A stretch of DNA of 64,000 nucleotides, from assembly GCA_902384455.1 (NCBI GenBank), contig CABMCB010000079.1:618-64617 (forward strand), written 5' to 3'. The number at the start of each line of letters is the position of its first letter. Within the stretch, counting starts at the first letter, position 1. Position numbers and translations under genes: made by a program. Under the pieces are notes generated by a model. It saw nothing but the letters and a program-made list of their open reading frames with translations, ran no database searches and was not told where the DNA came from. This DNA is from an uncultured archaeon (GTDB lineage: Archaea > Altiarchaeota > Altiarchaeia > IMC4 > SCGC-AAA252-I15). Of the stretch, positions 32,919-60,000 are shown piece by piece.

Positions 32919-34238
32919 TCAACCCTTCCCTCCACCACGCAGCCGAAGAACCATAACGGCAACAATCAAAAACAACCCACAAACAAAAACGAGCCCGACG
33001 ACCAAATAAAACAGGCGGCCATTCCCAGCAACTTCATCAGGCGCGTTGGCTGCGGCAGTTAAATTGCCGCCAGACGAAACGTTAGCCGCCTTATCGACCG
33101 CGCCAGAAGTAACTGCGCTGCCGTTCACATTCAAAATGACGTCCCTGCTTCTGGTGCCTGCGCCACCATAAAAAACCCTGCCCCTGACAATATAACGCCC
33201 AACGCTTTCCGGCGAAAAATAACTCACTAAAACAGCAGTTTCCCCGCCAGACACGTTCAGAACTCCGCTCTCAACCTTTCCGGCAGGAACCCTGGAACCA
33301 TCCTGCTCATTGATAAGATAAGCATCCCCCCTAAACACGGCGCCTTCAATCGGCAAAACACCGTTATTCCTAAAAAAAGCGGCAAGCCGAACCCTATCGC
33401 CTACACTGCTCCAAATCCTATCCGAACGAACCTCATTAAGCTCGCCCTTCAAGGAAAAAGCGCCGACGTCCAGCACATCAAAAAAAATCTCCTGCATCTG
33501 CCCACCATCAGCAGAAACATCCGCCCTATACTTGCCAACCGAAAGATCGCCGGAAGGAATACTAACAATGATACGCTCCGTTCTGCTAGCCTTAACCTCC
33601 GTATTCCCATACGACCTAACGCTTACCGCATCTTTCCCCAACTCATCAAAAACAACGACATCAACCTGAGGCGTAACAGGCACATTGCCAGTATTCAAAA
33701 CAGGCACCACAAACTCAACAAGAGAACCAGATTCAACATCCCTAACCGAAACTAAGCCCAGACTATAACTCCTGACGACATCGCCAACAACCTCCACCAC
33801 CACGCTAAGAACAACACCCGCCCCCACCGTTATGTCACCCTCCACCCTATTAACCGGCCTACCCTGCAAAAGAATAGTGCCGCTATAGTTGCCAACAGAC
33901 ACATTATCCGGCAGCCTAACCACCACATTCAAATCCGTCCTCCCCCCAGGCCCCAACAAAAACGAACCGTCAACACCAACACCCTCAATAACAAGCCAGT
34001 CTTTCACTGCCCCATCAACATGAGACGAAACATTCAACCACTCAGCCCCCGCCGTAGAAACAGTAACAACACCCTCAGAATACCCGCCGCCAACCATCCG
34101 CAAAAAACCCACAGTAGAAGGCCCCGCACCCAAACTAGTCTCAGAAGCCCCTACTCCGCAGCTAACCGCGGAAAAAACAAAAACGACAAAGCATAACCTA
34201 ACAGCCACCCCCTTAAAACCGAAACCAAAATCAACCAT
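32919..34238 (-). CDS. Membrane-anchored surface beta-sandwich protein, family M (paralogue of 56812-58011 and 58041-59267)
   Basis: Signal peptide, N-terminal SLGAGPSTVGF...GGGYSEGVVTVSTAG motif, shared VGKY..DV.AD.GQ.QE.FF.VL and LPIEGA.F.G.AYL...GRY..RG.V.YGG blocks, and a C-terminal TM helix with a basic tail. Confidence 0.8.
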   Translation of the reverse strand: MVDFGFGFKGVAVRLCFVVFVFSAVSCGVGASETSLGAGPSTVGFLRMVGGGYSEGVVTVSTAGAEWLNVSSHVDGAVKDWLVIEGVGVDGSFLLGPGGRTDLNVVVRLPDNVSVGNYSGTILLQGRPVNRVEGDITVGAGVVLSVVVEVVGDVVRSYSLGLVSVRDVESGSLVEFVVPVLNTGNVPVTPQVDVVVFDELGKDAVSVRSYGNTEVKASRTERIIVSIPSGDLSVGKYRADVSADGGQMQEIFFDVLDVGAFSLKGELNEVRSDRIWSSVGDRVRLAAFFRNNGVLPIEGAVFRGDAYLINEQDGSRVPAGKVESGVLNVSGGETAVLVSYFSPESVGRYIVRGRVFYGGAGTRSRDVILNVNGSAVTSGAVDKAANVSSGGNLTAAANAPDEVAGNGRLFYLVVGLVFVCGLFLIVAVMVLRLRGGGKG

Positions 34239-34256
34239 AACTACACCTGAATATAA

Positions 34257-35180
34257 TCATCTTTGCAGCGCATTAAAGAAGATGCTGGTCCAACAACTCC
34301 CGCGAATGCCCTCCGGCACATGCACACCCCAAAAAGTCCACAACATATCCCCACCCTCCAACGGCTGCTCCCTATCAAAAACAGTCGCATTAGCAAGCTC
34401 ATCACACCACGAAAGAGTACCCTCACCAAGAACACAACCACCCGGAAACTGCGAATCAGCCACAACACTAAAACTAATGTTACCAACAGAAATATTGCGC
34501 GGCCCATTACAAGACATCATAGCCGGCGAAGTAATCGTAATGAAAATGTCTGCATTACCACCATTAAAAGTGACAGCAGAAGCATTAAGAAAACCCGGCC
34601 TCCACTGAGTCCCGCTTTCGCCCACCTTCATTGCGCCAAAACTTATGTCACTACTCTGGTCTATGGCCACAAGAGGATTAATTGTGACAACGCCCAAATC
34701 GATCGCCTCCGCATCAAAAGAATCCTTAGCGTAAACCTTCGCAGCCCACTTGCCCCAATCAGCAAAATAACGGATAGGTCCGACAGTGCAGTTGGCAAAA
34801 GCAGTAATCCCGCTGCCGCCTTCAATACGGCAGGCGCTCGCATTGCCGTACCTAACGTCCTCGTCAGCGGGGCCTTCTCCGGAATCAAGCCGGTAAAAAG
34901 TGAAGTTTACGTAAGTCACGTCCTGAAAAGAGTTCCTATCGGTGATTAACGCCTGACACGAAATCCAGTAGTCCGTGTCGGGGCTGGGCGTATAAGGAAA
35001 CCTATCGATTGATTGGCCGGAATTAACGACGCAGACGACGTCCCCTACCTGCGGCGGAACATTGCCCACCCTAACAGTAGCGTTAACCACAACCGCATCA
35101 ACGCCGGCAAAAAAAAACTCTACAACGCAGGCCACTACAATCGCCGCCAGCAAAACCGTCAAACAGCCCGTAAACCTCAT
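34257..35180 (-). CDS. Secreted Cys-rich two-domain protein, family S, copy A
   Basis: Signal peptide. Motifs NVPPQVG, YTPSPDTDYWISC, ITDRNSFQDV, RYFADWGKWAAKVYAKD, ISFGAMKVG and GIRGSCWTSIFFNALQR-end are colinear with 41094-45179. Confidence 0.8.
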   Translation of the reverse strand: MRFTGCLTVLLAAIVVACVVEFFFAGVDAVVVNATVRVGNVPPQVGDVVCVVNSGQSIDRFPYTPSPDTDYWISCQALITDRNSFQDVTYVNFTFYRLDSGEGPADEDVRYGNASACRIEGGSGITAFANCTVGPIRYFADWGKWAAKVYAKDSFDAEAIDLGVVTINPLVAIDQSSDISFGAMKVGESGTQWRPGFLNASAVTFNGGNADIFITITSPAMMSCNGPRNISVGNISFSVVADSQFPGGCVLGEGTLSWCDELANATVFDREQPLEGGDMLWTFWGVHVPEGIRGSCWTSIFFNALQR

Positions 35181-36474: not shown

Positions 36475-37233
36475 TCAAACTGAAAACGGCATAAACAAAA
36501 AATTCATCGCAAGCTTAATGTAACCCACATACGGGATTCTGAAGAACCCGCGCCCCGTGACCTGCGATTCAGTAACGGGATAAGAAATCTCAAACCTGCC
36601 GCTGCACTGGTCAGTCGCCTCGTTGTTGTCCCCCTTAGTTATGAAGAAAGAATACTCCTTGCCTGAAGGAAAACTAGGATAAACGCAGCGCTTACCCTCC
36701 CTGCAATCATCAACCTTACTTATGAACTGCGCAAAATCATCCGGCTTAAAACAATCCAACGTCCCGCCCCAACCGGCAACAACGCCATCCTTCACAGAAA
36801 CAACGCCCACAACCCTGTGAATAATAGGCTCACGACCCAAAGGAAACCCGATATGATCCAAATCCCGCTGATAAATAACAACATCCCCCAAATGCGCATC
36901 CGGACTCTTAACCACAATCATATCCCCCCGCTGAAAACCAGAAGTCAAAGGAAAACCATCCACCCCAGAAACATTACGATCCAAAAGCCACGTACGCCAA
37001 GTAAGATCACCCACATGATGCTCCATACTGCCAGAAGTAACAACAACCAAAGGAACAAGCATATCCGCCCCAAGAGCCAAACGAAGAACAACCAAAATAA
37101 CCGCAACAGTCACCATAACCTCAACAGCATCCCTAAACCACGAAATCAAAGTCCCCTTAACACCCCTACCCGAATCTACAGAAGACGACTGCGAAACAAC
37201 GCCCGACTGGGAATCTTTGCCGCTAAAGCTCAT
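36475..37233 (-). CDS. Type I signal peptidase, Sec11/SipW (S26B) type
   Basis: One TM helix, then catalytic boxes SGSME (Ser), GDMIVV, IIHRV (His) and TKGDNNEATD. It carries extra insertions, including a Cys-containing one. Confidence 0.8.
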   Translation of the reverse strand: MSFSGKDSQSGVVSQSSSVDSGRGVKGTLISWFRDAVEVMVTVAVILVVLRLALGADMLVPLVVVTSGSMEHHVGDLTWRTWLLDRNVSGVDGFPLTSGFQRGDMIVVKSPDAHLGDVVIYQRDLDHIGFPLGREPIIHRVVGVVSVKDGVVAGWGGTLDCFKPDDFAQFISKVDDCREGKRCVYPSFPSGKEYSFFITKGDNNEATDQCSGRFEISYPVTESQVTGRGFFRIPYVGYIKLAMNFLFMPFSV

Positions 37234-40572: not shown

Positions 40573-41091
40573 ATGAACCGCCTACCAATTCTCGCTGCAG
40601 TAACCATAATAACCTGCATAGTAACAATCGCCGGATGCATGGACGATGGCAGCAGCGGAACCCAAACACAAAGATCAAAAGTCACACCCTGTAACATCAT
40701 AACCCAAAACATCGAAATAAAAATAGACGGAAACACCCTAAACACAGAAACAATCAAAGGACCACTATCCCTCTCATTCGTCGACGACTTCAACGGCCCA
40801 AGCAAAGACGTGCTGTCCAGCAAATACTTGGTGGAATGCTACTGGGCGAAAAACATAGGTGAACGAAAAGACCTGTACTACTGCACCGGAAGCTATCAAG
40901 CACCCGACGTAGACGACCGAAACATAATAAAAAGGTACCTGGACAAAAACTTCAAGATAGGGTTCGCCGTGGAAAAGCACGAAGGCGGAACATGGGTGGA
41001 CTACGAAGGAAAAAGCCGGACAGAACAACCCTTCAGCGTGCTCACAGTCCGCGAAATAACCGCAACATGCTGGACCACAGTGAAAAGCTAG
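40573..41091 (+). CDS. Small lipoprotein-like secreted protein
   Basis: The start is set at the internal ATG giving MNRLPILAAVTIITCIVTIAGCMDD (signal peptide with a lipobox-like AGC). The upstream part of the tracked ORF overlaps the aminotransferase gene. Confidence 0.55.
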   Translation: MNRLPILAAVTIITCIVTIAGCMDDGSSGTQTQRSKVTPCNIITQNIEIKIDGNTLNTETIKGPLSLSFVDDFNGPSKDVLSSKYLVECYWAKNIGERKDLYYCTGSYQAPDVDDRNIIKRYLDKNFKIGFAVEKHEGGTWVDYEGKSRTEQPFSVLTVREITATCWTTVKS

Positions 41092-41093
41092 AC

Positions 41094-42011
41094 ATGAACC
41101 GCCAAAAACACATCCTAACCCCAACAATTCTATTCAGCATTGCACTACTGCTGCTTTACTCCCCCCCCGGCGTTTCAGGAGAAAGCAACACCACAGCAGA
41201 CATCCAAAACGTAGCCCCCCAAGTCGGAACACTAACATGCTGCTTTGAAAGCGACTGCAGCGGAACATACACTCCAAGCGCAAAGACAAACTATACTCTA
41301 AGATGCATGGCAACAGTCACAGACAACAACTCTTACCAGGATATTTCAAGCGGAAACTTCTCGTTTTACATGACCTCATCAGGCCTTTCAGGCAGCGCGG
41401 ACTTGGACATACGGTATCTCAATTCAACTGCCTGCAACCTATACGGAGGAAGCGGAACTACAGAAACCGTAAACTGCACAATCTCCAAGGTGGCTTATTA
41501 CGCCGACTCCGGCAGTTGGACCGCAAACATTACTGTGGTGGATTTAGCCGGCAACGTAGGCTACAACACCAAGGCTCTGACAGTCAACGAGTTGATTGCG
41601 TTAGAACAGACATCAACGGTAAGTTTTGGCTCCATGTCAATTGGCGCCACCGGCTCTCAAACGTACCCTGGAAAAGTCAATCAATCAGCCACCACAACAA
41701 ACACAGGCAACGTAAACATCAACATAAGCATCACTTCCCCCGCTTCTATGGCGTGCAGCCAAACAGGCTCAATCCCCATATACAACATCACGGGAAACAC
41801 CACCGCAGGAGGAACATACCCCAGCGCCTGCCATCTTGTTGCGTCCACTACGGTGGGAAAGGCAGATTGCCCAATTTTTGGCATTGACATCCCCGATCAG
41901 GAGGACACAGCCGTCAACGCTTATGGAGTCACGTACTGGGGCGTAAGCGTTCCATCCGGGATACGCGGAACATGCTGGGCAGACATAACTTTCAACGGGC
42001 TTAAAGCTTAG
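41094..42011 (+). CDS. Secreted Cys-rich two-domain protein, family S, copy B
   Basis: Signal peptide MNRQKHILTPTILFSIALLLLYSPPGVSG. Family motifs are NVAPQVG, YTP, TVTDNNSYQDI, YYADSGSWTANITVVD, VSFGSMSIG, TTNTGNVNINISITSPAS, DCPIFGIDIPDQED and GIRGTCWADITFNGLKA-end. I count 11 N-x-S/T sequons. Confidence 0.85.
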   Translation: MNRQKHILTPTILFSIALLLLYSPPGVSGESNTTADIQNVAPQVGTLTCCFESDCSGTYTPSAKTNYTLRCMATVTDNNSYQDISSGNFSFYMTSSGLSGSADLDIRYLNSTACNLYGGSGTTETVNCTISKVAYYADSGSWTANITVVDLAGNVGYNTKALTVNELIALEQTSTVSFGSMSIGATGSQTYPGKVNQSATTTNTGNVNINISITSPASMACSQTGSIPIYNITGNTTAGGTYPSACHLVASTTVGKADCPIFGIDIPDQEDTAVNAYGVTYWGVSVPSGIRGTCWADITFNGLKA

Positions 42012-42093
42012 ACTACTGCTTGCTTTTAAGTCTAAATGAGGGAATAAGTACATAGGAGGAATAACAATTCCATCTAACAAAAAGGTCGAAAAA

Positions 42094-43077
42094 ATGAAAA
42101 AGGATTTTAAAATGAGCTGTTTGTCCTCTCGGGGACGTGTTGCCTTAAGTGGCTTAGTCGCCTTGTTGCTTGTAGGCTTGTTTGCCGCAAGCTTTTTAGT
42201 GAACAACGCGATCGGTCAGACTACTGGACCGCAGAACTACAGCGTTGTAATAGGAAACGCCGCTCCCACTTTGGGCACGGTTGCTTGCTGTTGGGGAGCT
42301 TCAGGCAACCCAAACACATGCGCTGACTCATATACGCCAGCCGCAAGCACAGACTACGTAATACGCTGCAACGTGACAGCAACCGACACAAACGGCTACG
42401 CCGACATCGTTGGCGCAAACATGTCTGTTTATACTGACGCCGCAGCCGAAGGTTGTACTGCCGACCAAGACGTTTGTTACAAGAACACTTCCTGCAGTCT
42501 ACTTTCAGGAAGCGGAACCACAGTCACAGTTTCATGCGGGTATACGAACATAAAATACTTCGCTGACGCATCCTCCACATGGAACTCTAAAATATACGTT
42601 TGGGACAACGCTCCCGCATCAGCAAACGCAATAGACTCCGCATTAACAATAGCCGACCTAGTCGCTATGACACAGAGCGCAACACTAGGATTCGGTTCAA
42701 TGAACGTCGGAGACACAGGGTCAGCCAACTTCCCCGGCAAAGTCAATGAGAGCGCCACCACAACCAACACAGGAAACGTGAACGTCAACATAAGCGTTAC
42801 AGCACCCGCTCAGATGGTGTGCAGCACCACAGGAAACATCGGAGTAGGCAACATCACAGGAAACACCACCGCCGGCGGAACATTCCCCAGTTCATGCAAA
42901 CTCGTAGCCTCCACAACCATAGGAAAAACAGACTGCCCAATGTTCGGAATAGACCTAGCCGACCAAGAAGACACCACAGTCACAGTGACAGCAAAGACAT
43001 ACTGGGGCATAAGCATACCAGCCGGAGTCAGAGGAACCTGCTGGGCAGACACAGTATTCAACGCCATAAAAGCGTAA
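42094..43077 (+). CDS. Secreted Cys-rich two-domain protein, family S, copy C
   Basis: Same motif series, with 12 Cys in the mature part. By eye it is identical to copy E at most aligned positions. Confidence 0.85.
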   Translation: MKKDFKMSCLSSRGRVALSGLVALLLVGLFAASFLVNNAIGQTTGPQNYSVVIGNAAPTLGTVACCWGASGNPNTCADSYTPAASTDYVIRCNVTATDTNGYADIVGANMSVYTDAAAEGCTADQDVCYKNTSCSLLSGSGTTVTVSCGYTNIKYFADASSTWNSKIYVWDNAPASANAIDSALTIADLVAMTQSATLGFGSMNVGDTGSANFPGKVNESATTTNTGNVNVNISVTAPAQMVCSTTGNIGVGNITGNTTAGGTFPSSCKLVASTTIGKTDCPMFGIDLADQEDTTVTVTAKTYWGISIPAGVRGTCWADTVFNAIKA

Positions 43078-43082
43078 AGAAA

Positions 43083-43126
43083 TTTCCGATAGAGCTATCG
43101 GAAACAACGGGGGCTAACAAGCCCCC
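43083..43126 (+). terminator. Two consecutive perfect hairpins followed by T-runs
   Basis: TTTCCGATAG-AG-CTATCGGAAA (43083-43104) and GGGGGCT-AACA-AGCCCCC (43109-43126), followed by ttttata and cctttttttc. Confidence 0.5.
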
Positions 43127-43175
43127 AACCCCCTATTTTATACCTTTTTTTCAAACAAAACTTTTACGTACGTCT

Positions 43176-44099
43176 GTGAAAGCATCTAAACTAATTCTTG
43201 GAAGCATACTACTAACACTTACCTGCTGCTTAACCCTCCTTTCTGAAACAGAAAGCCAACACGCAATACAAAACTACAGCGTAACAATAGCAAACAACCC
43301 CCCCACAATCGGCACACCCACATGCTGCATAGAAGACCAATGCGGCACATCATACACACCTCGCCAAGCAGCAGACTACAGCATAACATGCTACGCCACA
43401 GCAAACGACCCAAACGGCTACTTAGACATATCCCAATACGGAAACGGCAGACTAACATTCTACAAAAACGACTCAGAAGAAACAGGAACAGAAGACCAAG
43501 ACATCCGCTACACAAAATCCCACTGCACATTCTCAAACGGAAACGGCCAAGCATTAACGGTCAACTGCACGATAAGCGGAATAAAATATTACGCTGACGC
43601 TGGAGAATGGATAGCCAAGATTTACGTGACCGACGGAATATCAAAGCCCGCCTACTCCACAATGACGTTGACTATAAATTCCCAAGTGGCGATAGACCAG
43701 ACCCCAACGCTAGATTTCGGGACGATGGACATAGGGAGCGCCGGCTCAAGTTCGCGGCTGGGATACAACAACGTCCAAGCAATCACAAAAAACACGGGCA
43801 ACGTAAACATCAATCTCACAATAACAGCCCCCGCGAGTATGAAATGCAGTGTAGCGGGAAACATGGGCATAGGAAACATAACCTTTGACACAGCCGAAAA
43901 CACGACTTACCCCGGTAAATGCCACCTACAACAAGGAACAATAACCCCCCGGGAATGCCAGTACCTCGGGCTTAACATCCCCGACCAAGAAGACCCCGCT
44001 GGAAACTACACGGCCACGACATACTGGGGAATAGCCATACCTGACGGTGTAAGCGGAACATGCTGGGCCGATACAACATTTAATGCTATTCAAGCGTAG
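43176..44099 (+). CDS. Secreted Cys-rich two-domain protein, family S, copy D
   Basis: The start is set at GTG 43176 (VKASKLILGSILLTLTCCLTLL signal peptide). The upstream part of the tracked ORF 42819-44099 is an out-of-frame shadow of copy C. Family motifs are NNPPTIG, YTP, ANDPNGYLDI, KYYADAGEWIAKIYVTD, TKNTGNVNINLTITAPAS and GVSGTCWADTTFNAIQA-end. Confidence 0.75.
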   Translation: MKASKLILGSILLTLTCCLTLLSETESQHAIQNYSVTIANNPPTIGTPTCCIEDQCGTSYTPRQAADYSITCYATANDPNGYLDISQYGNGRLTFYKNDSEETGTEDQDIRYTKSHCTFSNGNGQALTVNCTISGIKYYADAGEWIAKIYVTDGISKPAYSTMTLTINSQVAIDQTPTLDFGTMDIGSAGSSSRLGYNNVQAITKNTGNVNINLTITAPASMKCSVAGNMGIGNITFDTAENTTYPGKCHLQQGTITPRECQYLGLNIPDQEDPAGNYTATTYWGIAIPDGVSGTCWADTTFNAIQA

Positions 44100-44201
44100 G
44101 GTACTTGAAGATTCGGAAAGGATTAAAGGATTTTTTTAGACGCCAGTCAATTTAATAATCAAGTTCGACAGAAAAACGTGTTCTGGACAATTAATCAAAA
44201 A

Positions 44202-45179
44202 ATGAAGAGTATTCCAATTGGTTCTAAAGTCGGTAGGCGCGTTGCGTTTAATGGTTTGGTCGCTTTGTTGCTCGTAGGCTTGTTTGCCGCAATCTTTTTC
44301 GTTAACAACGCAATGGGGCAGACTACGGCGGCTGCGAACTACAGTATTGTCATCAACAACGCCGCACCTACTTTAGGCACGGTTGCTTGCTGTTGGGGAG
44401 CTTCAGGCAACCCAAACACCTGCGGAAGCAGTTATACGCCAACTGCGAGCACTGACTACGTAATACGCTGCAACGTGACGGCAACCGACACAAACGGCTA
44501 CGCCGACATTGCAGGCGCAAACTTCTCCGTTTATACGACTGCTGCGGCTGAAGGATGTACTGCAGACCAAGACGTTTGCTACAAGAACACTACATGCGGG
44601 CTACTCTCAGGAAGCGGAACCACAGTCACAGTCTCATGCCAGTACACCAACATGAAGTACTTCGCGGACGCAGGAACAACATGGAACTCTAAAATATACG
44701 TTTGGGACAACGCTCCAGAATCAGCAAACGCAATAGCATCATCATTAACAATCGCCGACTTGGTCGCAATAACCCAAACAGCGACACTAAGTTTCGGTTC
44801 AATGAACATCGGAAGCACAGGGTCGGCTAACTTCCCCGGCAAAGTCAATGAGAGCGCCACAACCACCAACAACGGAAACGTAAACGTCAACATAAGCGTC
44901 ACAGCACCAGCATCATTTACTTGCAGCACAACAGGTACAATCCCAATATACAACGTCACAGGAAACACCACCATCGGAGGAACATACCCCAGCTCATGCC
45001 ACCTCGTAGCCTCCACAACCATAGGAAAAACAGACTGCCCCATGTTCGGAATAGACCTAGCCGACCAAGAAGACACATCAGTAACAGTAACAGCAAAAAC
45101 CTACTGGGGCGTGGCCGTCCCAACAGGAGTCCGAGGAACATGTTGGGCGGACATGATATTCAACGCAGTAAAAGCCTAA
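44202..45179 (+). CDS. Secreted Cys-rich two-domain protein, family S, copy E
   Basis: The ATG at 44202 gives MKSIPIGSKVGRRVAFNGLVALLLVGLFAA. The motif series is as in copy C. Confidence 0.85.
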   Translation: MKSIPIGSKVGRRVAFNGLVALLLVGLFAAIFFVNNAMGQTTAAANYSIVINNAAPTLGTVACCWGASGNPNTCGSSYTPTASTDYVIRCNVTATDTNGYADIAGANFSVYTTAAAEGCTADQDVCYKNTTCGLLSGSGTTVTVSCQYTNMKYFADAGTTWNSKIYVWDNAPESANAIASSLTIADLVAITQTATLSFGSMNIGSTGSANFPGKVNESATTTNNGNVNVNISVTAPASFTCSTTGTIPIYNVTGNTTIGGTYPSSCHLVASTTIGKTDCPMFGIDLADQEDTSVTVTAKTYWGVAVPTGVRGTCWADMIFNAVKA

Positions 45180-45180
45180 T

Positions 45181-46449
45181 TCAAGAAGCTACTTTCTCCC
45201 TAAGGAAATACAGAAAAGCAGCCACCACAAGCATAACCGACACAGCCACGGCAAAAATCCTCACGTCAAAAGAACCCAAATCAAAAGGCAACCCTGACGC
45301 AGGACGCTCAGAAACCACAAGATGCGTATCATCACTCACAACCGAATAATTAGACCCGACGCCGTCCCCGTAATAAACTTCAGCCCTCGAAAAAATATCG
45401 ACAACCTCCTTAGGGCTATACGTGTAAAACAAAACAAAACTCTCCATAGGCATAAGAGTAGGCAAAGTATAGTTCGCCTGCCCACCCACGACGTCAAAAG
45501 AATCAAGAAGAGGAAAATCCCGGATGAAAACATCATACGCCGTCCCATTGCCAACATTGCTTACGGTAATTGAAACGTTCCCCAAACCACCCACAAACCC
45601 CTCAGAAGGTCCGTCGCGCTTCACCTTCAAAACAGGCCTTTCAGGATGAACAAACACCGTAAGAGTCGGCGTCACGTTTGAGTAGGCCTTGCCTTTTTCG
45701 TCGTAAAAAGAGTATGAGAGCGGCTGAAACTCGAATGCCCCCAACTTGGTTGCGTTCAGTCTGACTGCGTAGGTGACGATTCCTCCTGCATTCAAGCTCC
45801 TGTTGGTGTAGTTGGGGTTGCCGTCCAACACCTGAAACACATCAGGTATGTCCTGTTTTAGCTGGACGCCGAAGGCGTGCTGTCCTCCGAAGTTGGCGAT
45901 GGACACTTCCATGTTGAATGGTATGCCTATGATCTGCGTGATGTTGTAGACTGAGCGCACGACTGCAATGTCGGGGCGCACGAAAAGCGGGGGTACCATG
46001 AGGCGTACGTTTCTCATTAGGAAGTCGTCGTAGTTGTTTTCTAGTCCTGCTTTTATTGTTAGGCGGTTTTTTCCTGCGGTTACTGCGCCTGGTTTTAGGG
46101 GTATTACGCATCCTTCCCAGTTGAGGGATTTTTGGCTTAAGCAGAGGTATCCTGCGTTTTCGCCGTTTATTTTTATGTCGTCTCTGATTGAGACTTCAAA
46201 TAGTTCTATGACTAGAAACGCGTTTTTTGGCGTGGACTCGAGGTCAAAGACGTAAGTGTATTCGATTCCGACTGGCCTGCCCGGGTCGAATCCCCAGTCG
46301 TTGAGGCTGTCGCCTATGTATACCTGCTTATCTCCTATAGGCACGGGCGCGTAATCCCAGGGTATGGATTCCTCCGTGGCGCAGGAGACAGAAGTAAGTC
46401 CTGCTATGAACAATATGATTAATGACGCGTGAACTAGGTTCTCCCGCAT
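45181..46449 (-). CDS. Membrane-anchored surface protein with beta-sandwich repeats
   Basis: Signal peptide (ASLIILFIAGLTSVSCA), two CARDB/DUF11-like segments (VSIANFGGQHAFGV and ITVSNVGNGTAYDV), and a C-terminal TM helix. It is convergent with copy E at a 1-nt gap. Confidence 0.65.
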   Translation of the reverse strand: MRENLVHASLIILFIAGLTSVSCATEESIPWDYAPVPIGDKQVYIGDSLNDWGFDPGRPVGIEYTYVFDLESTPKNAFLVIELFEVSIRDDIKINGENAGYLCLSQKSLNWEGCVIPLKPGAVTAGKNRLTIKAGLENNYDDFLMRNVRLMVPPLFVRPDIAVVRSVYNITQIIGIPFNMEVSIANFGGQHAFGVQLKQDIPDVFQVLDGNPNYTNRSLNAGGIVTYAVRLNATKLGAFEFQPLSYSFYDEKGKAYSNVTPTLTVFVHPERPVLKVKRDGPSEGFVGGLGNVSITVSNVGNGTAYDVFIRDFPLLDSFDVVGGQANYTLPTLMPMESFVLFYTYSPKEVVDIFSRAEVYYGDGVGSNYSVVSDDTHLVVSERPASGLPFDLGSFDVRIFAVAVSVMLVVAAFLYFLREKVAS

Positions 46450-51988: not shown

Positions 51989-54900
51989 GTGAGGATGGAC
52001 GACAAAACTACATTTAATCCAACAAAAAACAGGCCGTCCATCAACCCCGAAATTCCTCTTTTCGTTCCCTACAAATCCAAGCCGGCAAAGCATACCAACA
52101 AATTGGTTGTCCTCTTAGCCGCAGTATTCATCCTTTCCGGCGTCTTTTTGGCCATCCGCGCCTCATTCCCGGCGACACCACAAGTACAAGGCGCATTCCT
52201 GGGGGTAGACTTAGACAAGATATTCGGGAAACAAACAGGCGGAGATTCAAAGATACAATACGACGTAGAAAATACCTGGCGAATGAGCGGGAAAAACCCG
52301 CAGCACACAAGATTCTTCAACGTGTCAATAAACGGCACCCTCATCCCCGAATACATATGGTACGGCTGGGCGAACTCATTATACACAACACCCATCGCAT
52401 TCAACGACAAAATATACGCTATATTAGACGGCTCTTACTACTCCGGATACGGAAGCATGTACAACTCATATGCCTACCAATACTGCTACTACACCGGACT
52501 ATACGAATTCGACGCCAGAGACCTTACAGTCCTCCAATACAACAACCCCTGGTATTATTACAACTACTGCCCCTACTCATATGGAAGCTTAGCCGGCGCA
52601 GGAGACAAAATATTCTACACCGACGAATACACGCGCGACCTAATAGCCGTAAATGCGTCAAACATAAGCCAAGTACTCGGAAACTTCAGCACCGCAGACA
52701 ACTGGTGGCAACGAGGATCACTGGTAGTAATAAACGGCACAAGCACAGACGACTCAGACCCCATAGTGTACACCTCAGAAAGCTACAACCGGACACTGTA
52801 CCGGATAAACGGCACAAACATGGCCAAGCTAGACCAGTTCATAGGCCTAGGATACGTCTACGACGGACCAACATACTTCAACGACAACCTATACTTCTCA
52901 GGAGGCGACGGATACATATACCGGACATACCCCAACCTAACACTAATCCAAAACTACAGTACAGGCGGAAGCGTAGGCCAAATGGCGGCAGGAGACAACG
53001 GCCTGATATACTTCTTCGGGACAATGAGCTACAACGACACCAACGGCACGCTATACTATTTTAATGGGCTATGGGCCCTAAACAGCAGCAACATAAGCCA
53101 AATCGTAACAAACCAATCCGGCATCGATAGATACTACGAATACTGGGGAACATGCAGCCCAGTAATAGCCAACGGCATAGTATACGGCCAAGTCTACAAT
53201 AGTAGCAGCGGCAGATTTATGATTGCCGCATACAACGAAAACGACCTGTCCCAGCAACTTGCAGCCCGTGAGTTAGTGCCCAGAGGATACCTCAATTACT
53301 GTCCGTATTACTACTACTGGTACTACGGGTACTATTGGCAATATGACCCATACTGCTACTACTACTATTACCCATCAAATTACATCTCCGGATGTCCCAT
53401 AGCGGGAGGAGGATACATATTTTTGGGCGACAACCACTGCCACTTCTACTCATTCAACGCAACAACCCTTGAATTGGTCGACTCATACGACCTGCTGAAC
53501 GACGGATACTACTACTGGGGCAACTACGCAGACACATGCACATGGTACCCATTCATAAGTGGCGAATCAGTTTACGCTGGAGTAACAGACTCAAAATACT
53601 ACGCAGCCAGCTGGTGCAGCCAAGTAAACACAACAGACAACAGCGTCTGCGATTCATGGGCATATAGCAGTTCATCCGAAGCCCAAGCATACCTAATCAA
53701 GTTCTCAGCATTGGTAGCCGAGGCAAACTTAACCCAAACCGCAACACCAGCCAGCCCGCAAAAATGGAACACATCAATCACATTCAGCTGCAACTACACA
53801 AACTCATCAGGAAGCCCCATAACAGGCTCAAAAGTCACCCTATCAATAGATTCCGACAACTACACAGCAACATACTCCGGCGGAGTATACTCCGTGACAA
53901 TAACCAACCTCACCCGAGGAGCCCACTCATGGTTCTGCAACGCAAAAGGCACAGGATACGAAGCCAAAATGGGAACACCCCAGACATACAGGATCAACCA
54001 AGAACCCATATTCGGATACAGGATATTCCAGCCAAACGGAAACGAATCAAGAGACACATACATAATGCAAAACTACGAAACATCATACTGGTGGAACTGG
54101 GCATGGCTCGCCGGATTAAACCACTACGAACATGACCCATACCTCAGAGTAGGAGCCGGATGGTACACGTGGTGCTACGACTGCGGCTCACCATACGGCT
54201 GGTGGGGATACACATCATGGGACTACAGAACACTAATATACTTCGACCTATCAAAACTACCACAAAACTCCACCAACATCACATCCGCAAGCGTAGGCCT
54301 GCACACCGACAACCTATACTGGGACTGGACGTGGTTCACAATCTACAACATGACCAACGGCTGGGCAGATAACGCAAGCTGGTTCATGAACGTAACAGAA
54401 ATAGACGCATGGTGGAACGACACCGAAGGCAACCTGTGGTACAACGGAACATTCTGGAACCAATCAGGAGGAGACTACGACTCTAACGCAATCAACCAAA
54501 CAACAATGGGCTGGCAATACTACTGGACATACTCTAACTGGCTATACTTCGACATAGCATCAACGCTAAGAAACTGGATAGGACACCCAGAAATACAAAA
54601 CCTAGGATTCCTACTAGACAGCTTCGGAAGCGGAGGAAGCTACACCAACTACAACTACTACGACCAAACAAACTTCGACTCATCAGAAACAGAAAACCCC
54701 GCAAACAGACCAAAACTACAAGTAAACTTCACAATAACAGACCAAACATGGCCCAGAAACACAAACAACAGCAACATAATAGCAAGCAGATTCTTCTGGG
54801 ACCCAGACAACGAAAACCTCACATACAACGTACTAGGACTAGATAACGACCTAGAAAACATGACCGCAATCATAGACACAAACTCAACCATCATAACATT

Positions 54901-55819
54901 CGTCCCCACCGAATGCTGGTACGGCGTCATAAGAAACATACGAATAATAGCAAACGACAGCTTCGGAACAACAGGAATAAGCAACAACTTCACACTAAAC
55001 GTCACATACACAGAAGGAGCCTGCAGCCACAACTACCCACCCCGAATAGGCAACGTAAACTGCACAAACCCAATAGACCTAACCGCCGCAGATTACGTAG
55101 CCATAACATGCAACGCAACATTCACAGACTCAAACGGATGCTCAGACGTAACAGGCGCAAACGGCACATTCTGGGACTCAACAAGCACAACATTCACAGC
55201 CGCAGACAACACATACAACCACTACACAAACGCAACATGCAGCAGACTATGCGCAGCAAGCCTAGTAACATGCGCATTCAACCTCGCATGGGTAGCCAAC
55301 GCAACAAACGACTGGTACGGAAACATCACAATCTGGGACAGCGACAACCAAAGATACAACTACACAAGCGGAATACAAGTAAACACAATAACAGGAACAC
55401 GCGGCAACACATCATCAATACCCGCAGGAGACTTCATAATAAACTTCAGCATAACATACACCGGAGGCCAAGTAATACCCGGCAGAACAAGCGACACCGA
55501 CGCAGTATCCACATTCCACAACACCGGAAACACCAAAATGAACCTGGAAGTCAACGGCTCAGACATGAGCTGCGCGCTAGGAACATCAATACCAGTGGCC
55601 AACATAAAATACGACAACAAAACCCTAAGCCACTCAAGCAAATGCGGCACACTAGCAACCAGCCTAGACAACACATGCACATCACTATCCTCCTACTTCC
55701 TGCTCGCCCCAGGCAACCCCTACCCAAAGAAAGACGTCTACTGGAGCGTCCAAGCGCCAATACCCCTCAAAGGACCCTGCAACGGAAGAATAGGCGTACT
55801 CGCAATAGCAGCAACCTAA
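51989..55819 (+). CDS. Giant (1276 aa) membrane-anchored or secreted adhesin-like glycoprotein: beta-propeller + Ig-like + DNRLRE-like + C-terminal family-S module
   Basis: N-terminal TM or signal anchor (LVVLLAAVFILSGVFLAI). A PQQ-like propeller region is rich in Y/W/N. RTLIYFDLSKLPQNSTNITSASVGLH resembles the DNRLRE domain core. From about 55031 the motifs YPPRIGNVNC, FTDSNGCSDV and HNTGNTKMNLEVNG are colinear with family S. Confidence 0.7.
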   Translation: MRMDDKTTFNPTKNRPSINPEIPLFVPYKSKPAKHTNKLVVLLAAVFILSGVFLAIRASFPATPQVQGAFLGVDLDKIFGKQTGGDSKIQYDVENTWRMSGKNPQHTRFFNVSINGTLIPEYIWYGWANSLYTTPIAFNDKIYAILDGSYYSGYGSMYNSYAYQYCYYTGLYEFDARDLTVLQYNNPWYYYNYCPYSYGSLAGAGDKIFYTDEYTRDLIAVNASNISQVLGNFSTADNWWQRGSLVVINGTSTDDSDPIVYTSESYNRTLYRINGTNMAKLDQFIGLGYVYDGPTYFNDNLYFSGGDGYIYRTYPNLTLIQNYSTGGSVGQMAAGDNGLIYFFGTMSYNDTNGTLYYFNGLWALNSSNISQIVTNQSGIDRYYEYWGTCSPVIANGIVYGQVYNSSSGRFMIAAYNENDLSQQLAARELVPRGYLNYCPYYYYWYYGYYWQYDPYCYYYYYPSNYISGCPIAGGGYIFLGDNHCHFYSFNATTLELVDSYDLLNDGYYYWGNYADTCTWYPFISGESVYAGVTDSKYYAASWCSQVNTTDNSVCDSWAYSSSSEAQAYLIKFSALVAEANLTQTATPASPQKWNTSITFSCNYTNSSGSPITGSKVTLSIDSDNYTATYSGGVYSVTITNLTRGAHSWFCNAKGTGYEAKMGTPQTYRINQEPIFGYRIFQPNGNESRDTYIMQNYETSYWWNWAWLAGLNHYEHDPYLRVGAGWYTWCYDCGSPYGWWGYTSWDYRTLIYFDLSKLPQNSTNITSASVGLHTDNLYWDWTWFTIYNMTNGWADNASWFMNVTEIDAWWNDTEGNLWYNGTFWNQSGGDYDSNAINQTTMGWQYYWTYSNWLYFDIASTLRNWIGHPEIQNLGFLLDSFGSGGSYTNYNYYDQTNFDSSETENPANRPKLQVNFTITDQTWPRNTNNSNIIASRFFWDPDNENLTYNVLGLDNDLENMTAIIDTNSTIITFVPTECWYGVIRNIRIIANDSFGTTGISNNFTLNVTYTEGACSHNYPPRIGNVNCTNPIDLTAADYVAITCNATFTDSNGCSDVTGANGTFWDSTSTTFTAADNTYNHYTNATCSRLCAASLVTCAFNLAWVANATNDWYGNITIWDSDNQRYNYTSGIQVNTITGTRGNTSSIPAGDFIINFSITYTGGQVIPGRTSDTDAVSTFHNTGNTKMNLEVNGSDMSCALGTSIPVANIKYDNKTLSHSSKCGTLATSLDNTCTSLSSYFLLAPGNPYPKKDVYWSVQAPIPLKGPCNGRIGVLAIAAT

Positions 55820-55820
55820 A

Positions 55821-56783
55821 ATGAACAAAAACCTGATAACAACAGCACTAATACTCATAGCCCTGACAGGCACAGCAACATCCCTAAGCATAGCAATCTC
55901 CCCCAGCATCACCAGAACGTCCATAGCCCGCGGACAAGAAATAGTCCAAAACATAAGAGTAACAACCCAAGACGAAGGCACATTCATAACCGTAGTAAGC
56001 GTAACAGGCTCCGCAAAAGGATGGACAACAATCCTAAACCCCTCAGTCAACGTAACCAAAAACCAACCCGGAAACATAAAAGTCAACATACAGATACCGC
56101 CAGAAGCAACAAACGGAGACTATGAATCCAAAATCTACATAACCCTACAACCCTACGTAGAAGCAACATCACAAGACATGGGAATGTCAGCCGAAATGAC
56201 CGGAGTAGCACTCATAGAAATAACCGTCACAGGCACAGGACTACTAGAACAAAAAATACTCCACATAGACATAGAAAGCGCAAAAGAAAACGACCCCATA
56301 AGACTAAACACCATAATAGCCAACTCAGGAAACATCCTCCTAAGAACAGCCCTCAACGTAAACATCCTAGACCAAGACAAAAACACCCTAAACAAAGAAT
56401 TCAACGAATACATAACCCTACCCGAAGGAACCCAACAACCATTCAACTTCAACATAACCTCCGGACTACCCGCAGGAAGATACTGGGCAAACGTCACATT
56501 CCTCTTCAACAACATAAAAAAACAAAACATAATGCTACCCTTCACAGTCCAAAAAAACCAGATAAAAAGACCCGAAACCACAACAACAACCACACAAACA
56601 CCCACAACAACCACAACACCCACACAAGAAACACCCCAAAACACCACAAAAACACCACAACCCGAAACAGAACAACCCACAACAATACCCTGGTCAACAA
56701 TAACCCTAATAATCCTAGTAGCCGCCATAGCCTACGTGCTATACTGGAGCAAGAAACGCGAAACAGCACGAAGATTTATATGA
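55821..56783 (+). CDS. Membrane-anchored surface beta-sandwich protein with Thr/Pro stalk (family M-like)
   Basis: Signal peptide, two beta-sandwich-like segments, a TTTTTQTPTTTTTPTQETPQNTTKTPQPETEQPTT stalk, then a C-terminal TM helix and basic tail. It starts 1 nt after the adhesin stop. Confidence 0.75.
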   Translation: MNKNLITTALILIALTGTATSLSIAISPSITRTSIARGQEIVQNIRVTTQDEGTFITVVSVTGSAKGWTTILNPSVNVTKNQPGNIKVNIQIPPEATNGDYESKIYITLQPYVEATSQDMGMSAEMTGVALIEITVTGTGLLEQKILHIDIESAKENDPIRLNTIIANSGNILLRTALNVNILDQDKNTLNKEFNEYITLPEGTQQPFNFNITSGLPAGRYWANVTFLFNNIKKQNIMLPFTVQKNQIKRPETTTTTTQTPTTTTTPTQETPQNTTKTPQPETEQPTTIPWSTITLIILVAAIAYVLYWSKKRETARRFI

Positions 56784-56811
56784 CCTCGCCAAATACAATA
56801 GGGATACATAA

Positions 56812-58011
56812 ATGACAAAAAAGGCGCATAATACGACCAAACAAATTCTCAAAAAAGCCCTAATAGCAACAATAATCCTCACATTCTACACCCTACAAAC
56901 AAACGCCGTAAGCATAGGCGCAGGCCCAGCAGTACTCAACTTCAACAACATGGTACGCGGCGGATACGCAGAAGACTCAGTCACAGTATCAACAAGCGGA
57001 ACAGAAAACCTAACCGTAGTAATCGAATCCACAGGCCAAATAAAAGACTGGGTCACAGTATCAACCCCCATGCCAATGCCCCTAATGGCAGGCGAAAGAA
57101 AAAACATCAAAATCGTAGTCAGACCCCCAGTAACAGCCTCACCCGGAGAATACTCAGCAATACTATACATAAGAGCAGCACCCACCGCAGGCATAGGAAA
57201 CTCAACCGGCCTAGCACTAGGCGCAGGAGTAGGAATACAAATCAACGTAAACATCACAGGCCGAGAAATCAAAGGATACAGCCTAAAAGCAGTCAACGTC
57301 AAAGACACCGAAGTCACATTCCCCATAGACATCACAACCCTAATTGAAAACACCGGAAACATCCCACTACAACCCACATTCAAAGTCAAAATACTAACAC
57401 CCACCGGAGAAGAAACAACCGCCCAAAAAGAATTCACAGTAGGCACATTCAACCCCGGCATACAAGAAAACTACACATTCACCCTACCCTCCACAGGACT
57501 AGCCGAAGGAAAATACGCGGCCAGCATCGCAATAAAAATAGAAAACAACGAAACCGACCTAGCCAACCTAGGTTTCACCCTACTCCCACCCGGCAGCCTG
57601 CGCCTAAAGGGAGAATTCAAGAGCATAACACTATCCGAAAACACCATAGCACCCCAAAAACCCGTAAAAATCACCGGCATATTCCAAAACACCGGCGAAG
57701 TACCGACAAACGCTCAACTAACAGTTGAAGTATACAAAGGCACAGAACTCATAAAGACAATAGACTCAACAGAAACACGAGTAGACGCAGGAGAAACCCA
57801 ACTACTCGACGTAACATACACCTCAGAACAACCAGGAGACCTAACCATACGAGGCACAATAACATACAGCAAAAAGAAGACGCCAGAAAAAGAAATAACA
57901 CTCATAGTATCCGGAGGCGGATTACCCACCACATACATCGCAATCGGAGCAGCAGTAATAATACTGATAATCGGAGGGGTAGTCTACTACAAACGGAACT
58001 ATGCACTATAA
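56812..58011 (+). CDS. Membrane-anchored surface beta-sandwich protein, family M
   Basis: VSIGAGPAVLNFNNMVRGGYAEDSVTVSTSG N-terminal block, ENTGNIPL, GKYAASI, and a C-terminal TM helix. Confidence 0.8.
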   Translation: MTKKAHNTTKQILKKALIATIILTFYTLQTNAVSIGAGPAVLNFNNMVRGGYAEDSVTVSTSGTENLTVVIESTGQIKDWVTVSTPMPMPLMAGERKNIKIVVRPPVTASPGEYSAILYIRAAPTAGIGNSTGLALGAGVGIQINVNITGREIKGYSLKAVNVKDTEVTFPIDITTLIENTGNIPLQPTFKVKILTPTGEETTAQKEFTVGTFNPGIQENYTFTLPSTGLAEGKYAASIAIKIENNETDLANLGFTLLPPGSLRLKGEFKSITLSENTIAPQKPVKITGIFQNTGEVPTNAQLTVEVYKGTELIKTIDSTETRVDAGETQLLDVTYTSEQPGDLTIRGTITYSKKKTPEKEITLIVSGGGLPTTYIAIGAAVIILIIGGVVYYKRNYAL

Positions 58012-58040
58012 ACAATAATAACAAAAAAAGGGAGAAAACC

Positions 58041-59267
58041 ATGACAAAAAAGAACCTATGCGTTGTAGTCGCCGTGCTAACGGCATTAATGGGATACGCT
58101 TCTGCCGTAAGTCTGGGCGCAGGCCCGGCAGTCGTAGAATTCCCCGAAATGATAAAAGGCGGATACGCCGAACAAGTCATAACGGTATCAACAGCCGGTG
58201 ACGAACCCCTAATCGTCAAATCAGAAGTCACAGGCGAAATCAAAAGCTGGGCGTCAGTAGAAGAAGGAGGCACATTCAAACTCGACCCAGCCGCCCGAAG
58301 AGACGTCAAAATAATGGTAAACCTCCCCATCGACGTCCCCAACGGCAGATACGAAGGAATAATCTACTTCCGCGCAGCACCAGCATCAAGTGCATCAGGC
58401 GAAGGAACAGGACTATCACTCGGCGCAGGAGTAGGAATACGCGTAGGCATAACAGTAAGCGACAAACAAGTAGAAAAATACGAACTACGACAAGTCGGAG
58501 TCAAAGACACAGAAATAGGATTCCCCGCAGAATTCACAGCAACACTAGCAAACACAGGAAACGTCCGCTTAGTCCCAAAAATAACAATCACAATAATGGA
58601 CGAACTAAAAAAGAGAACAATAAAAACATTCGACTACGCTGAAACAGAAATAAAACCAACATCCTCCGAAACAATAACAATAAAAGTCCCAACAAACGGA
58701 ATAGACGTAGGCAAATACACCGCAAAAGTAACAGCAGACAACGGACAAGAACAAGAAGTATTCTTCAACGTACTAGAAAAAGGCACACTAGCACTCAAAG
58801 GAATCCTACGCGAAGTCAAAGCCGAAAAAGTCTGGGTAGAAGAAGGAGAAATGGTCAAAATAGTCGCCACACTCGAAAACACCGGCGAACTACCCATCGA
58901 AGGAGCAATATTCAAAGGAGAAGCATACCTAGTAGACGACGCATACGGAACCAGAAAACTAGTCGGAACATTCGAAAGCGACCAAATGGACGTACCCAAA
59001 GAAAAAACAGTCGAACTATCCAGCTACTACACACCCGCAATAGGCGGCCGCTACGTCATCCGCGGTGAAGTAGCATACGGCGGCAAAAGAACCCAAAGCA
59101 AAGACACCATACTAAACGTAGTGGCAAAGCCGACAAACTTCCTACCCTACGCAGTAATCGTAGGCGTAATAGTAATAGCCATAGTCTACTACCTAACACG
59201 AAAAACCGAAGACGGAAGAACACGCCGCTTCAAAAAGATTTGGGCAGACTACTTAGGGCTAAAATAA
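58041..59267 (+). CDS. Membrane-anchored surface beta-sandwich protein, family M
   Basis: VSLGAGPAVVEFPEMIKGGYAEQVITVSTAG. It is colinear with 32919-34238 throughout (VGKYTAKVTADNGQEQEVFFNVL, LPIEGAIFKGEAYL, GRYVIRGEVAYGG). It has a C-terminal TM helix and basic tail. Confidence 0.8.
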   Translation: MTKKNLCVVVAVLTALMGYASAVSLGAGPAVVEFPEMIKGGYAEQVITVSTAGDEPLIVKSEVTGEIKSWASVEEGGTFKLDPAARRDVKIMVNLPIDVPNGRYEGIIYFRAAPASSASGEGTGLSLGAGVGIRVGITVSDKQVEKYELRQVGVKDTEIGFPAEFTATLANTGNVRLVPKITITIMDELKKRTIKTFDYAETEIKPTSSETITIKVPTNGIDVGKYTAKVTADNGQEQEVFFNVLEKGTLALKGILREVKAEKVWVEEGEMVKIVATLENTGELPIEGAIFKGEAYLVDDAYGTRKLVGTFESDQMDVPKEKTVELSSYYTPAIGGRYVIRGEVAYGGKRTQSKDTILNVVAKPTNFLPYAVIVGVIVIAIVYYLTRKTEDGRTRRFKKIWADYLGLK

Positions 59268-59280
59268 GGAGGACAAAAAA

Positions 59281-60000
59281 ATGATCAAAAAAACCAAAAC
59301 AGGAATCCCCGGAGTGGACGAACTCATAGGCGGAGGCATACCAGACAAAGCAGTCATAATAGTATCAGGATCCCCCGGTATCGGGAAAAGCAACTTCGCA
59401 ATGCAATACATATACAACGGAGCAACAATGTTCAATGAACCCGGCGTATACATAACCGTAGAAGACACACCCGAAAACGTCAAAGCATACGCACAAGAAT
59501 TCGGCTGGGACCTAGACAAACTCGAAAAAGAAAACAAAATAGCAATAGTCGCCCAACCAATATACGGCGACGACAAAGAAATGAAAAGAGGAGGCAAAGA
59601 CCGCAAAGACACCCTATCCGAAACAATAAAAAGAATAGGCGCAAAAAGAGTAGTACTAGACAGCGTAACACTATTCAAATACCTATTCAACGACGACATA
59701 GCACGAAGAATAAACCTCCTAAACTTCATCAAACAAGTAAAAGACTCCGGCTGCACAACAGTAATGGTAGCAGAACAACACGAAAGCTCCCCAAACATAA
59801 CATACCTAGACGAACACTTCCTAGCAGACGGCCTACTACTCCTATTCTGGAGCAGACACCGCGAAAAAGCAGAAAGATGCTTCGTAGCAGTAAAAATGAG
59901 AGGCTGCGAAATCAACTCAGACATGAGGCCCATGAAAATAACCAACAAAGGCGTCATAGTCTACCCAACACAAGTACCATTGACGTTGGCCTCCGACTAA
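59281..60000 (+). CDS. Single-domain KaiC/RecA-superfamily ATPase (COG0467-like)
   Basis: GIPGVDELIGGGIP, Walker A GSPGIGKS and Walker B RVVLDS; 239 aa. Confidence 0.8.
   Translation: MIKKTKTGIPGVDELIGGGIPDKAVIIVSGSPGIGKSNFAMQYIYNGATMFNEPGVYITVEDTPENVKAYAQEFGWDLDKLEKENKIAIVAQPIYGDDKEMKRGGKDRKDTLSETIKRIGAKRVVLDSVTLFKYLFNDDIARRINLLNFIKQVKDSGCTTVMVAEQHESSPNITYLDEHFLADGLLLLFWSRHREKAERCFVAVKMRGCEINSDMRPMKITNKGVIVYPTQVPLTLASD

Follow-up and report, generated by a model that had tools for sequence, protein, structure and literature searches.

A predicted two-domain Ig-like surface module without an anchor and a membrane-anchored Ig-like partner are encoded side by side in archaea and Patescibacteria

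A stretch of 64,000 nucleotides from contig CABMCB010000079.1 of an uncultured archaeon of the Altiarchaeota, referred to as the window throughout, encodes six copies of a protein family that we designate S, four of them in a tandem array at positions 41094-45179. S is a large, unnamed family of secreted surface modules with two immunoglobulin (Ig)-like domains, and its genes lie beside those of a second family, T, whose members combine two to three Ig-like domains with a C-terminal membrane helix. The adjacency of S and T genes both in archaea (DPANN/Altiarchaeota) and in bacteria of the Patescibacteria/candidate phyla radiation (CPR) points to an undescribed display or attachment cassette. 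We propose, with a probability of roughly 45%, that S modules are displayed non-covalently on T anchors and form an adhesive, fast-evolving coat to which large S proteins add binding domains. Surface display through a module and an anchored partner is a known kind of arrangement; the variant described here is found in unusual hosts, which span two domains of life. The ultra-small cells of DPANN archaea and Patescibacteria are believed to spend their lives fixed to those of other organisms, and to our knowledge almost nothing is known beyond type IV pili about the molecules that hold them to their hosts.

A hidden Markov model (HMM) of S run over all six reading frames of the window detected six sites only, with E-values between 8e-44 and 2.6e-76. 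Five of these are stand-alone genes and the sixth is formed by the last ~280 residues (from ~54980) of a protein of 1276 amino acids; all six align colinearly as paralogues. The original prediction, made from the letters of the window, had named these six colinear copies and listed a series of motifs common to them; the copies were borne out by the alignment and by the six-frame search, and the motif series is visible in the alignment. The four tandem genes all lie on the + strand: copy 1 (41094-42011; 305 amino acids, comprising a signal peptide and a pair of Ig-like domains, with 10 Cys residues and 11 sequons; S-HMM E 2.6e-76), copy 2 (42094-43077; 327 amino acids, 13 Cys residues, 12 of them in the mature part; E 8.6e-76), copy 3 (43176-44099; 307 amino acids, GTG start; E 7.4e-73) and copy 4 (44202-45179; 325 amino acids, the sister of copy 2; E 3.6e-75). 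The cysteine count for copy 2 and the sequon count for copy 1 agree with those given originally, if the letters C and B used there are taken to stand for 42094 and 41094, respectively. Copy 5 (34257-35180, - strand; 307 amino acids; E 3.6e-67) shares its strand with a T gene that lies directly downstream of it. The large S protein (51989-55819, + strand; 1276 amino acids, 53 sequons) consists of an N-terminal signal anchor, a Tyr/Trp-rich passenger region and the C-terminal S module (54980-55819, + strand, residues ~998-1274; E 8e-44), and it is orthologous to the large S protein of L036, one of the related loci that were compared with the window.

Pairwise amino acid identities among the six copies range from 24 to 82%. 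The tandem four are 44-52% identical to each other, copy 5 shares 34-40% with the other copies and the S module of the large protein 24-28%, while a pairwise alignment of copies 2 and 4 gives 81.8%. The latter two had been taken for the products of a recent duplication; they are indeed a close pair, yet not a recent one, given a nucleotide identity of 81.6% and a synonymous divergence (dS) of ~0.55. Their ratio of non-synonymous to synonymous divergence (dN/dS) is 0.23, and values of 0.1-0.34 were obtained among all four tandem copies, which are under purifying selection. No identical tracts pointing to gene conversion and no long identical repeats were found among the S copies. We therefore rejected a diversifying or cassette-switching repertoire, and with it the suggestion that the array represents a variable adhesin repertoire.

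Every stand-alone S copy displays a single hydrophobic segment, positioned at the N-terminus, and hydropathy analysis revealed no C-terminal anchor in any of them, their C-termini ending in ...FNAIKA. The S copies contain 2.3-4.2 sequons per 100 amino acids and 3.3-4.0% Cys; the corresponding figures for eight housekeeping proteins encoded in the window are 0.44 and 0.93%. When each sequence was shuffled within its own composition, the sequon excess reached significance in the 1276-residue protein and in the copies at 41094 and 34257 (P=0.0005 for the latter); it was non-significant for the 42094, 43176 and 44202 copies. The description of the stand-alone copies as exported, anchorless and rich in both cysteine and sequons is thus supported by hydropathy and by residue counts.

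The predicted structure of S depended on the depth of the alignment. With 16 sequences, AlphaFold2 produced the N-terminal domain only, the predicted local distance difference test (pLDDT) score of the C-terminal domain remaining below 50. With 26 sequences, the 41094 copy was modelled with a pLDDT of 87.6 and a predicted template modelling score (pTM) of 0.78 as two complete beta-sandwiches (approximately residues 43-172 and 185-305), each with a pLDDT above 84. S is accordingly predicted to be a non-enzymatic protein of two tandem Ig-like beta-sandwiches. Among the 50 matches listed by Foldseek against the PDB are Bbp, SdrG, the N2-N3 region of ClfA, RbmA, integrin alpha legs, FimH and CfaE; the TM-scores of the PDB matches are low (0.15-0.28) and hence establish the fold class and no specific relative. 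That these nearest structures belong to adhesins and matrix proteins again speaks for a non-enzymatic fold. A Foldseek search of viral models yielded equally generic tandem Ig-like folds, with overall TM-scores of ~0.31 or less.

Residues N39, P42, D77-x-N79-G80, Y108, C114, C128, W142, D150, G205-N206, W282 and P287 are invariant or nearly so in S. From this pattern, C114 and C128 probably form a conserved disulfide, and the D-x-N-G...D group may constitute a cation-binding site. The mature N-terminus carries a conserved alternating x-V-x-V-x-N-x-x-P motif that lies outside the strands of the monomer model (pLDDT 52-77). Since this motif recurs ahead of every Ig-like domain in the multi-domain relatives P0012 and P0013, it looks like a domain-boundary element and not like a dedicated donor strand.

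Family S proved to be far larger than the window suggests. An exhaustive profile (HMM) search, counted as clusters at 50% identity, detected 3,944 clusters of relatives at E<=1e-3, of which 1,498 pass the stricter E<=1e-30; a word-indexed protein search recovers just 13-19 relatives because Thr/Ser-rich words swamp its index. Where a source is named, the relatives come from Candidatus Woesearchaeota, Pacearchaeota, Altiarchaeales and Patescibacteria, and some of the loci are plainly bacterial, encoding NusA, trigger factor, a bacterial-type signal peptidase and a type IV pilin. Neither single S copies nor sets of 16 and 83 members matched a Pfam or NCBIfam model; these scans returned sub-threshold noise only, such as Ependymin, Big_13 and class C beta-lactamase fragments. 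Sequence-profile searches of the PDB with the S and T alignments gave nothing below E=0.08, and the S profile run against all PDB chain sequences nothing below E=0.15, its four weak matches being unrelated proteins. The view that S cannot be assigned to a named domain therefore holds even with an 83-sequence profile. S is, as originally proposed, a multi-copy family, and it has envelope neighbours; its thousands of relatives, the typical position of the module at the end of large proteins and the coupling to T had escaped notice. The searches returned no confident match to an enzyme family, signal peptides are present, and homologues are not confined to single-copy genes devoid of envelope neighbours.

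The position of the S module within its relatives is instructive. In 95 of the 168 best relatives it stands alone (~270-350 amino acids), and in a further 65 (~40%) it occupies the extreme C-terminus of proteins of 382-3137 amino acids; N-terminal (6/168) and internal (2/168) placements are rare. Passengers recognisable by Pfam were present in three of the seven large relatives scanned, namely Laminin_G_3 (a ConA-like lectin domain), DUF2341 and fn3. Its occurrence at the end of giant proteins favours a role of the module in attachment.

T is our candidate for the attachment site. Four T-type proteins are encoded in the window, all with a C-terminal membrane helix that runs out into a basic tail. 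Three of them show an N-terminal hydrophobic segment as well at the threshold applied in the hydropathy analysis, and the product of 56812-58011 the C-terminal one only. The first (32919-34238, - strand; T-HMM E 7e-145) is a protein of 439 amino acids with a signal peptide, CARDB/ASH-type Ig-like domains and the C-terminal helix, and its gene follows S copy 5 directly. The large S gene is likewise followed directly by three T-type genes on the + strand: a short T-like gene (55821-56783; 320 amino acids with two Ig-like domains, a Thr/Pro-rich stalk and a C-terminal helix; E 1.8e-96), a T gene with CARDB, ASH and HYDIN-type Ig matches (56812-58011; 399 amino acids; E 2.7e-157) and a T gene of a subfamily with a conserved cytoplasmic tail (58041-59267; 408 amino acids; RKTEDGRTRRFKKIWADYLGLK; E 6.4e-165). 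All Pfam matches of the T proteins (CARDB, ASH, HYDIN-Ig, DUF7507 and WxLIP_HBD) are sub-threshold. The C-terminal domain of S and domain 1 of T have compatible strand patterns, and a profile comparison gave a probability of 12%, a weak indication of homology.

The coupling of S and T recurs across domains of life. In 11 of the 15 loci reached through S, a T gene adjoins S within a few genes; these comprise archaeal loci (the window with three arrangements, L001, L004, L031, L032 and L034) and loci of the Patescibacteria type (L005, L006, L007, L025 and L033). The contigs of L030 and L035 are short or truncated. Conversely, S was present in all five Altiarchaeota loci reached through T. The order small S, large S, T is found in the window, L032, L033, L034 and L036-L038, and the gaps between S and T genes, in archaea and bacteria alike, often amount to a few bases or are replaced by overlaps. 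Four database entries that appear to be single proteins are read-throughs from T into S. We rejected them as true (Rosetta-stone) fusions, the S part retaining its own signal peptide past the membrane helix of T; as read-throughs they are further evidence for the immediate adjacency of the two genes.

The two families differ in their rate of change. Comparison of the window with the syntenic locus L036 gave 73% identity for the adjacent KaiC-family ATPase, 48% for T, 29-32% for small S and 28% for large S. This gradient, with S at its lower end, fits S as the exposed outermost layer and T as a conserved scaffold.

In the mechanism that we favour, S would be exported through the Sec pathway and cut by signal peptidase I. 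The anchorless modules, which would be glycosylated and stabilised by disulfides, would then be held at the cell surface through non-covalent Ig-Ig binding to T, a single-pass anchor with two to three Ig-like domains outside the cell and its C-terminal helix in the membrane. Small S proteins (those of the four tandem genes and of 34257-35180) would contribute the module alone, and large S proteins such as that of 1276 amino acids would place adhesive passenger domains ahead of the same C-terminal module. Together, S and T would constitute an exposed adhesive coat on a conserved anchor, for which the attachment of ultra-small cells to hosts or surfaces is a plausible use. An anonymous array of paralogues thereby becomes a defined cassette, in which an anchorless two-Ig module, carried in some cases by giant lectin-bearing proteins, is paired with an anchored Ig partner, and which occurs in both domains of life and is covered neither by Pfam nor by NCBIfam. 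Should docking prove to be the mechanism, it would provide a general rule for spotting the exposed surface proteome in these organisms, supply candidate host-attachment proteins, offer a likely case of a surface system transferred between domains, and show the WxL/WxLIP logic of the Firmicutes either re-invented independently or preserved in a very distant relative. Full-text searches that covered donor-strand filaments, WxL clusters, hami and the surface proteins of DPANN archaea and Patescibacteria found no description of S or of an S-T cassette.

The comparison with WxL proteins deserves to be drawn out. WxL clusters encode small proteins consisting of WxL only, a large protein with N-terminal binding domains and a C-terminal WxL domain, and WxLIP, which combines two IgG-like domains with a membrane helix and has been proposed to bind WxL and stabilise it (PMC10599100). 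The Enterococcus gilvus locus L028, for example, carries a large adhesin gene, three tandem small WxL genes and then WxLIP. This three-part layout, known from Enterococcus, Lactobacillus and Listeria, is shared by the S-T loci (window 51989-59267, L032-L034 and L036-L038); WxL and S modules alike possess no covalent anchor, and WxLIP and T agree in their topology of Ig-like domains followed by a C-terminal membrane helix. The parts themselves differ. The two Ig-like domains of S span ~270 amino acids, compared with 209-259 for entire small WxL proteins of the E. gilvus locus, and T has two to three CARDB/ASH-type domains. WxLIP is made up of DUF916 and DUF3324 Ig-like domains and the membrane helix; no T protein matched DUF916. 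DPANN/Altiarchaeota archaea are devoid of murein (peptidoglycan), and peptidoglycan binding, as in WxL, therefore cannot be the shared mechanism.

Several results weigh against the docking of S on T. No T gene was detected beside S in L003, L026 and L027, where unassigned genes for proteins of 310-425 amino acids are found instead. In the window itself, no T gene lies directly beside the four-gene array (41-45 kb), the nearest anchored Ig protein (45181-46449) belonging to another family. For S, the resemblance to WxL systems does not extend to homology; we rejected such a relationship for this family, which has no WxL motif pair, no match to the Pfam WxL model and an hhalign probability of 0.9% against three E. 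gilvus WxL proteins. The corresponding signal for T is below threshold, with a score of 21.8 bits against WxLIP_HBD (PF11797; cut-off 28.9) in one of nine T proteins, that of 58041-59267, and an hhalign probability of 17.9% for the T profile against the WxLIP protein of E. gilvus. Finally, several small paralogues, a large protein with a C-terminal module and one anchored Ig protein would equally make up a pilus operon, and tandem small paralogues together with a two-part adhesin that ends in the module recall chaperone-usher and archaeal thread or bundling-pilus loci.

The last point leads to the alternative that survives best, which we nevertheless consider unlikely: S as the subunit of a surface fibre or pilus, assembled by donor-strand exchange or by head-to-tail Ig contacts, with large S as the tip adhesin and T as a base or chaperone-like factor. 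Donor-strand filaments (chaperone-usher pili, the archaeal thread Saci_0406 and TasA/AbpA) resemble S in having beta-sandwich subunits for which Sec and signal peptidase I are the export route, tandem paralogues, tip adhesins with a C-terminal subunit fold and, in some loci, a signal peptidase nearby; a gene for this enzyme adjoins S in two CPR loci. Archaeal donor-strand filaments are built from glycosylated substrates of Sec and signal peptidase I (PMC9715654), and S, being rich in sequons, may be glycosylated as well. FimH and CfaE appear among its Foldseek matches, and the best tblastn matches of T in plasmids, albeit non-significant, are a pilus chaperone and WxLIP. The position of the N-terminal x-V-x-V-x-N-x-x-P motif outside the strands of the monomer model could likewise be read as that of a donor strand; its repetition before each Ig-like domain of P0012 and P0013 speaks against this. 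An objection to a fibre is that both S domains are predicted to fold fully and confidently as a monomer, so that no strand is obviously missing. The original proposal of polymer subunits is not borne out by this model, which gives no sign of donor-strand exchange.

Searches for the companions of known filaments point the same way. A PapD-type chaperone homology of T is unsupported (hhalign probability 6.3%), and neither an usher nor a PapD Pfam family was found among the window neighbours scanned or in the existing annotation of the genes that neighbour S in related loci. Archaeal threads of the Saci_0406 type (arCOG10215) have a conserved N-terminal Asp and a YYY motif; this D-x-YYY pattern is absent from the mature N-termini of the window S copies. 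S shows no thread, TasA or AbpA match by sequence or profile and none among the 50 Foldseek matches listed; Peptidase_M73, the family of TasA, camelysin and AbpA, was specifically not matched in Pfam, NCBIfam, the PDB sequences or these Foldseek matches. A reading of the loci as tapA-sipW-tasA operons was rejected, since there is no M73 fold and the signal peptidase gene is adjacent in the two related CPR loci only and 1.3 kb away in the window. In these two loci, a single-pass membrane protein of ~80 amino acids is encoded after S (L005 10934-11182 and L006 10968-11204; 41% identical between the loci), and bacterial type I signal peptidases lie within 2 kb of S (L005 7406-7912 and L006 11255-11767). 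Small anchored CscD-type proteins occur in WxL clusters and sipW in TasA operons, and the L005/L006 layout of S, small membrane protein and signal peptidase recalls both; it was not seen in other loci.

A more ambitious version of the S-T reading, which we regard as quite unlikely, would see in S and T a previously unrecognised appendage system, common to the ultra-small episymbionts of the DPANN/Altiarchaeota and the Patescibacteria, in which S modules assemble on T anchors into an attachment organelle that in Altiarchaeota is coupled to a trio of KaiC-type ATPases through the conserved tail of one T paralogue and is maybe related to hami. The subunit of the hamus, the 'grappling hook' of Candidatus Altiarchaeum, is a glycosylated beta-sandwich protein of 97 kDa with six paralogues, whose mode of anchoring is unknown (PMC4460559). 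The membrane helix of the T protein encoded by 58041-59267 is followed by the tail RK-EDGRTRRFKKIWGDYL-IK, in which D391, T394, R396, F397, W401, Y404 and L405 do not vary among 13 homologues; in the Altiarchaeota loci the tail is likewise invariant. Separated from this gene by 13 nucleotides is that of a KaiC-family ATPase (59281-60000, + strand; PF06745 E 6e-59), which is followed by two DUF7504 KaiC-like genes (60053-60634 and 60631-61245, + strand; PF24336). The order of T-tail gene, KaiC and DUF7504 is kept in five metagenome-assembled genomes (MAGs) of Altiarchaeota (L031, L036, L037, L038 and L040), and this best-conserved T subfamily and its surrounding synteny were found only in MAGs of Candidatus Altiarchaeota/Altiarchaeales; the loci examined from Woesearchaeota and the CPR lack the KaiC trio. 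It is possible that the trio belongs to the S-T system, and the T tail may link the complex on the cell surface with an ATPase in the cytoplasm.

Very doubtful, in our judgement, is a two-component lattice or sheath resembling an S-layer, in which S would form an anchorless canopy on an anchored T stalk in the manner of SlaA and SlaB of the Sulfolobales. Both systems pair an anchorless glycoprotein with a partner bearing a C-terminal membrane helix if S, as its high sequon density suggests, is glycosylated. S is widespread in organisms with otherwise unidentified envelope proteins, and its faster evolution relative to T would suit an outer lattice too. The two systems have no sequence relationship, however, and S shows no similarity to the S-layer families in Pfam or NCBIfam. 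At ~280 amino acids in its mature form it is much smaller; a genome with five or six divergent paralogues of S, and with four genes of the T type, would be unusual for a lattice protein; and the S module as the C-terminal appendage of very different, unrelated giants is better explained by docking.

Least probable of all appears to us a released, soluble S, acting as an RbmA-like scaffold or lectin-type binding protein of the matrix and sharing no more than a 'surface island' with T. In its favour, the top Foldseek matches include RbmA, a biofilm scaffold that is secreted and has two domains; S has no anchor, and the four-gene array no T beside it. Against it stand the conserved adjacency of S and T across archaea and bacteria and the C-terminal position of the module on giant proteins, which points to attachment; the TM-scores to RbmA of just 0.22-0.26 reflect the fold class only. 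The same restraint applies to the MSCRAMM adhesins, whose N2-N3 pair of DEv-IgG domains with its latch is combined with an LPXTG sortase anchor. Bbp, SdrG and the N2-N3 region of ClfA are, with RbmA, the best Foldseek matches of S and share with it two tandem Ig- or FnIII-like sandwiches; TM-scores of 0.15-0.26 (MSCRAMM TMq 0.15-0.24) at 8-12% identity indicate a shared fold class and nothing closer. Unlike MSCRAMMs, S has no LPXTG motif, other C-terminal sorting signal or hydrophobic tail, and the taxa differ.

Among the genes that surround the S copies, an archaeal type I signal peptidase is encoded 1.3 kb upstream of copy 5 (36475-37233, - strand; TIGR02228 E 7.7e-14, at the cut-off). It is probably the enzyme that processes S, and possibly just the housekeeping one. 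The gene at 40573-41091 (+ strand) specifies a lipobox-type protein of 172 amino acids (...IAGC) and ends two nucleotides before S copy 1. The interval 40573-45179 had originally been treated as the S array as a whole; it does contain the array, and this first gene is not a member. Its product matches neither the S nor the T HMM, has no Pfam match and no homologue in the other loci; the gene is probably co-transcribed with the array and lineage-specific. Converging on the other end of the array, with a gap of one nucleotide, is a gene for a protein of 422 amino acids of the TRAP-beta/DUF11 Ig type (45181-46449, - strand; PF05753 E 3.3e-15). This protein has a signal peptide, nine sequons and a C-terminal membrane helix, with hydrophobic segments at both ends, and shows no match to the T HMM, marking it as a family distinct from T. 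Its relative in eukaryotes is the translocon-associated protein beta.

Two further + strand genes of the window, located upstream of the region described above, encode probable surface proteins that are devoid of an S module: one of 1789 amino acids without a Pfam match (8164-13533) and one of 515 amino acids with FG-GAP/beta-propeller and weak dockerin-like matches (14428-15975). The gene content of the window is archaeal: NurA, PAC2, an acidic ribosomal stalk protein and an archaeal-type signal peptidase I are encoded in it as well, and its topoisomerase I is 43-57% identical to those of DPANN-type MAGs. The + strand has a pronounced compositional bias throughout the window, especially at 24000-60000, with AT skew values of up to +0.52 and GC skew values down to -0.36; this bias persists over genes on both strands and yields many long, spurious antisense open reading frames.

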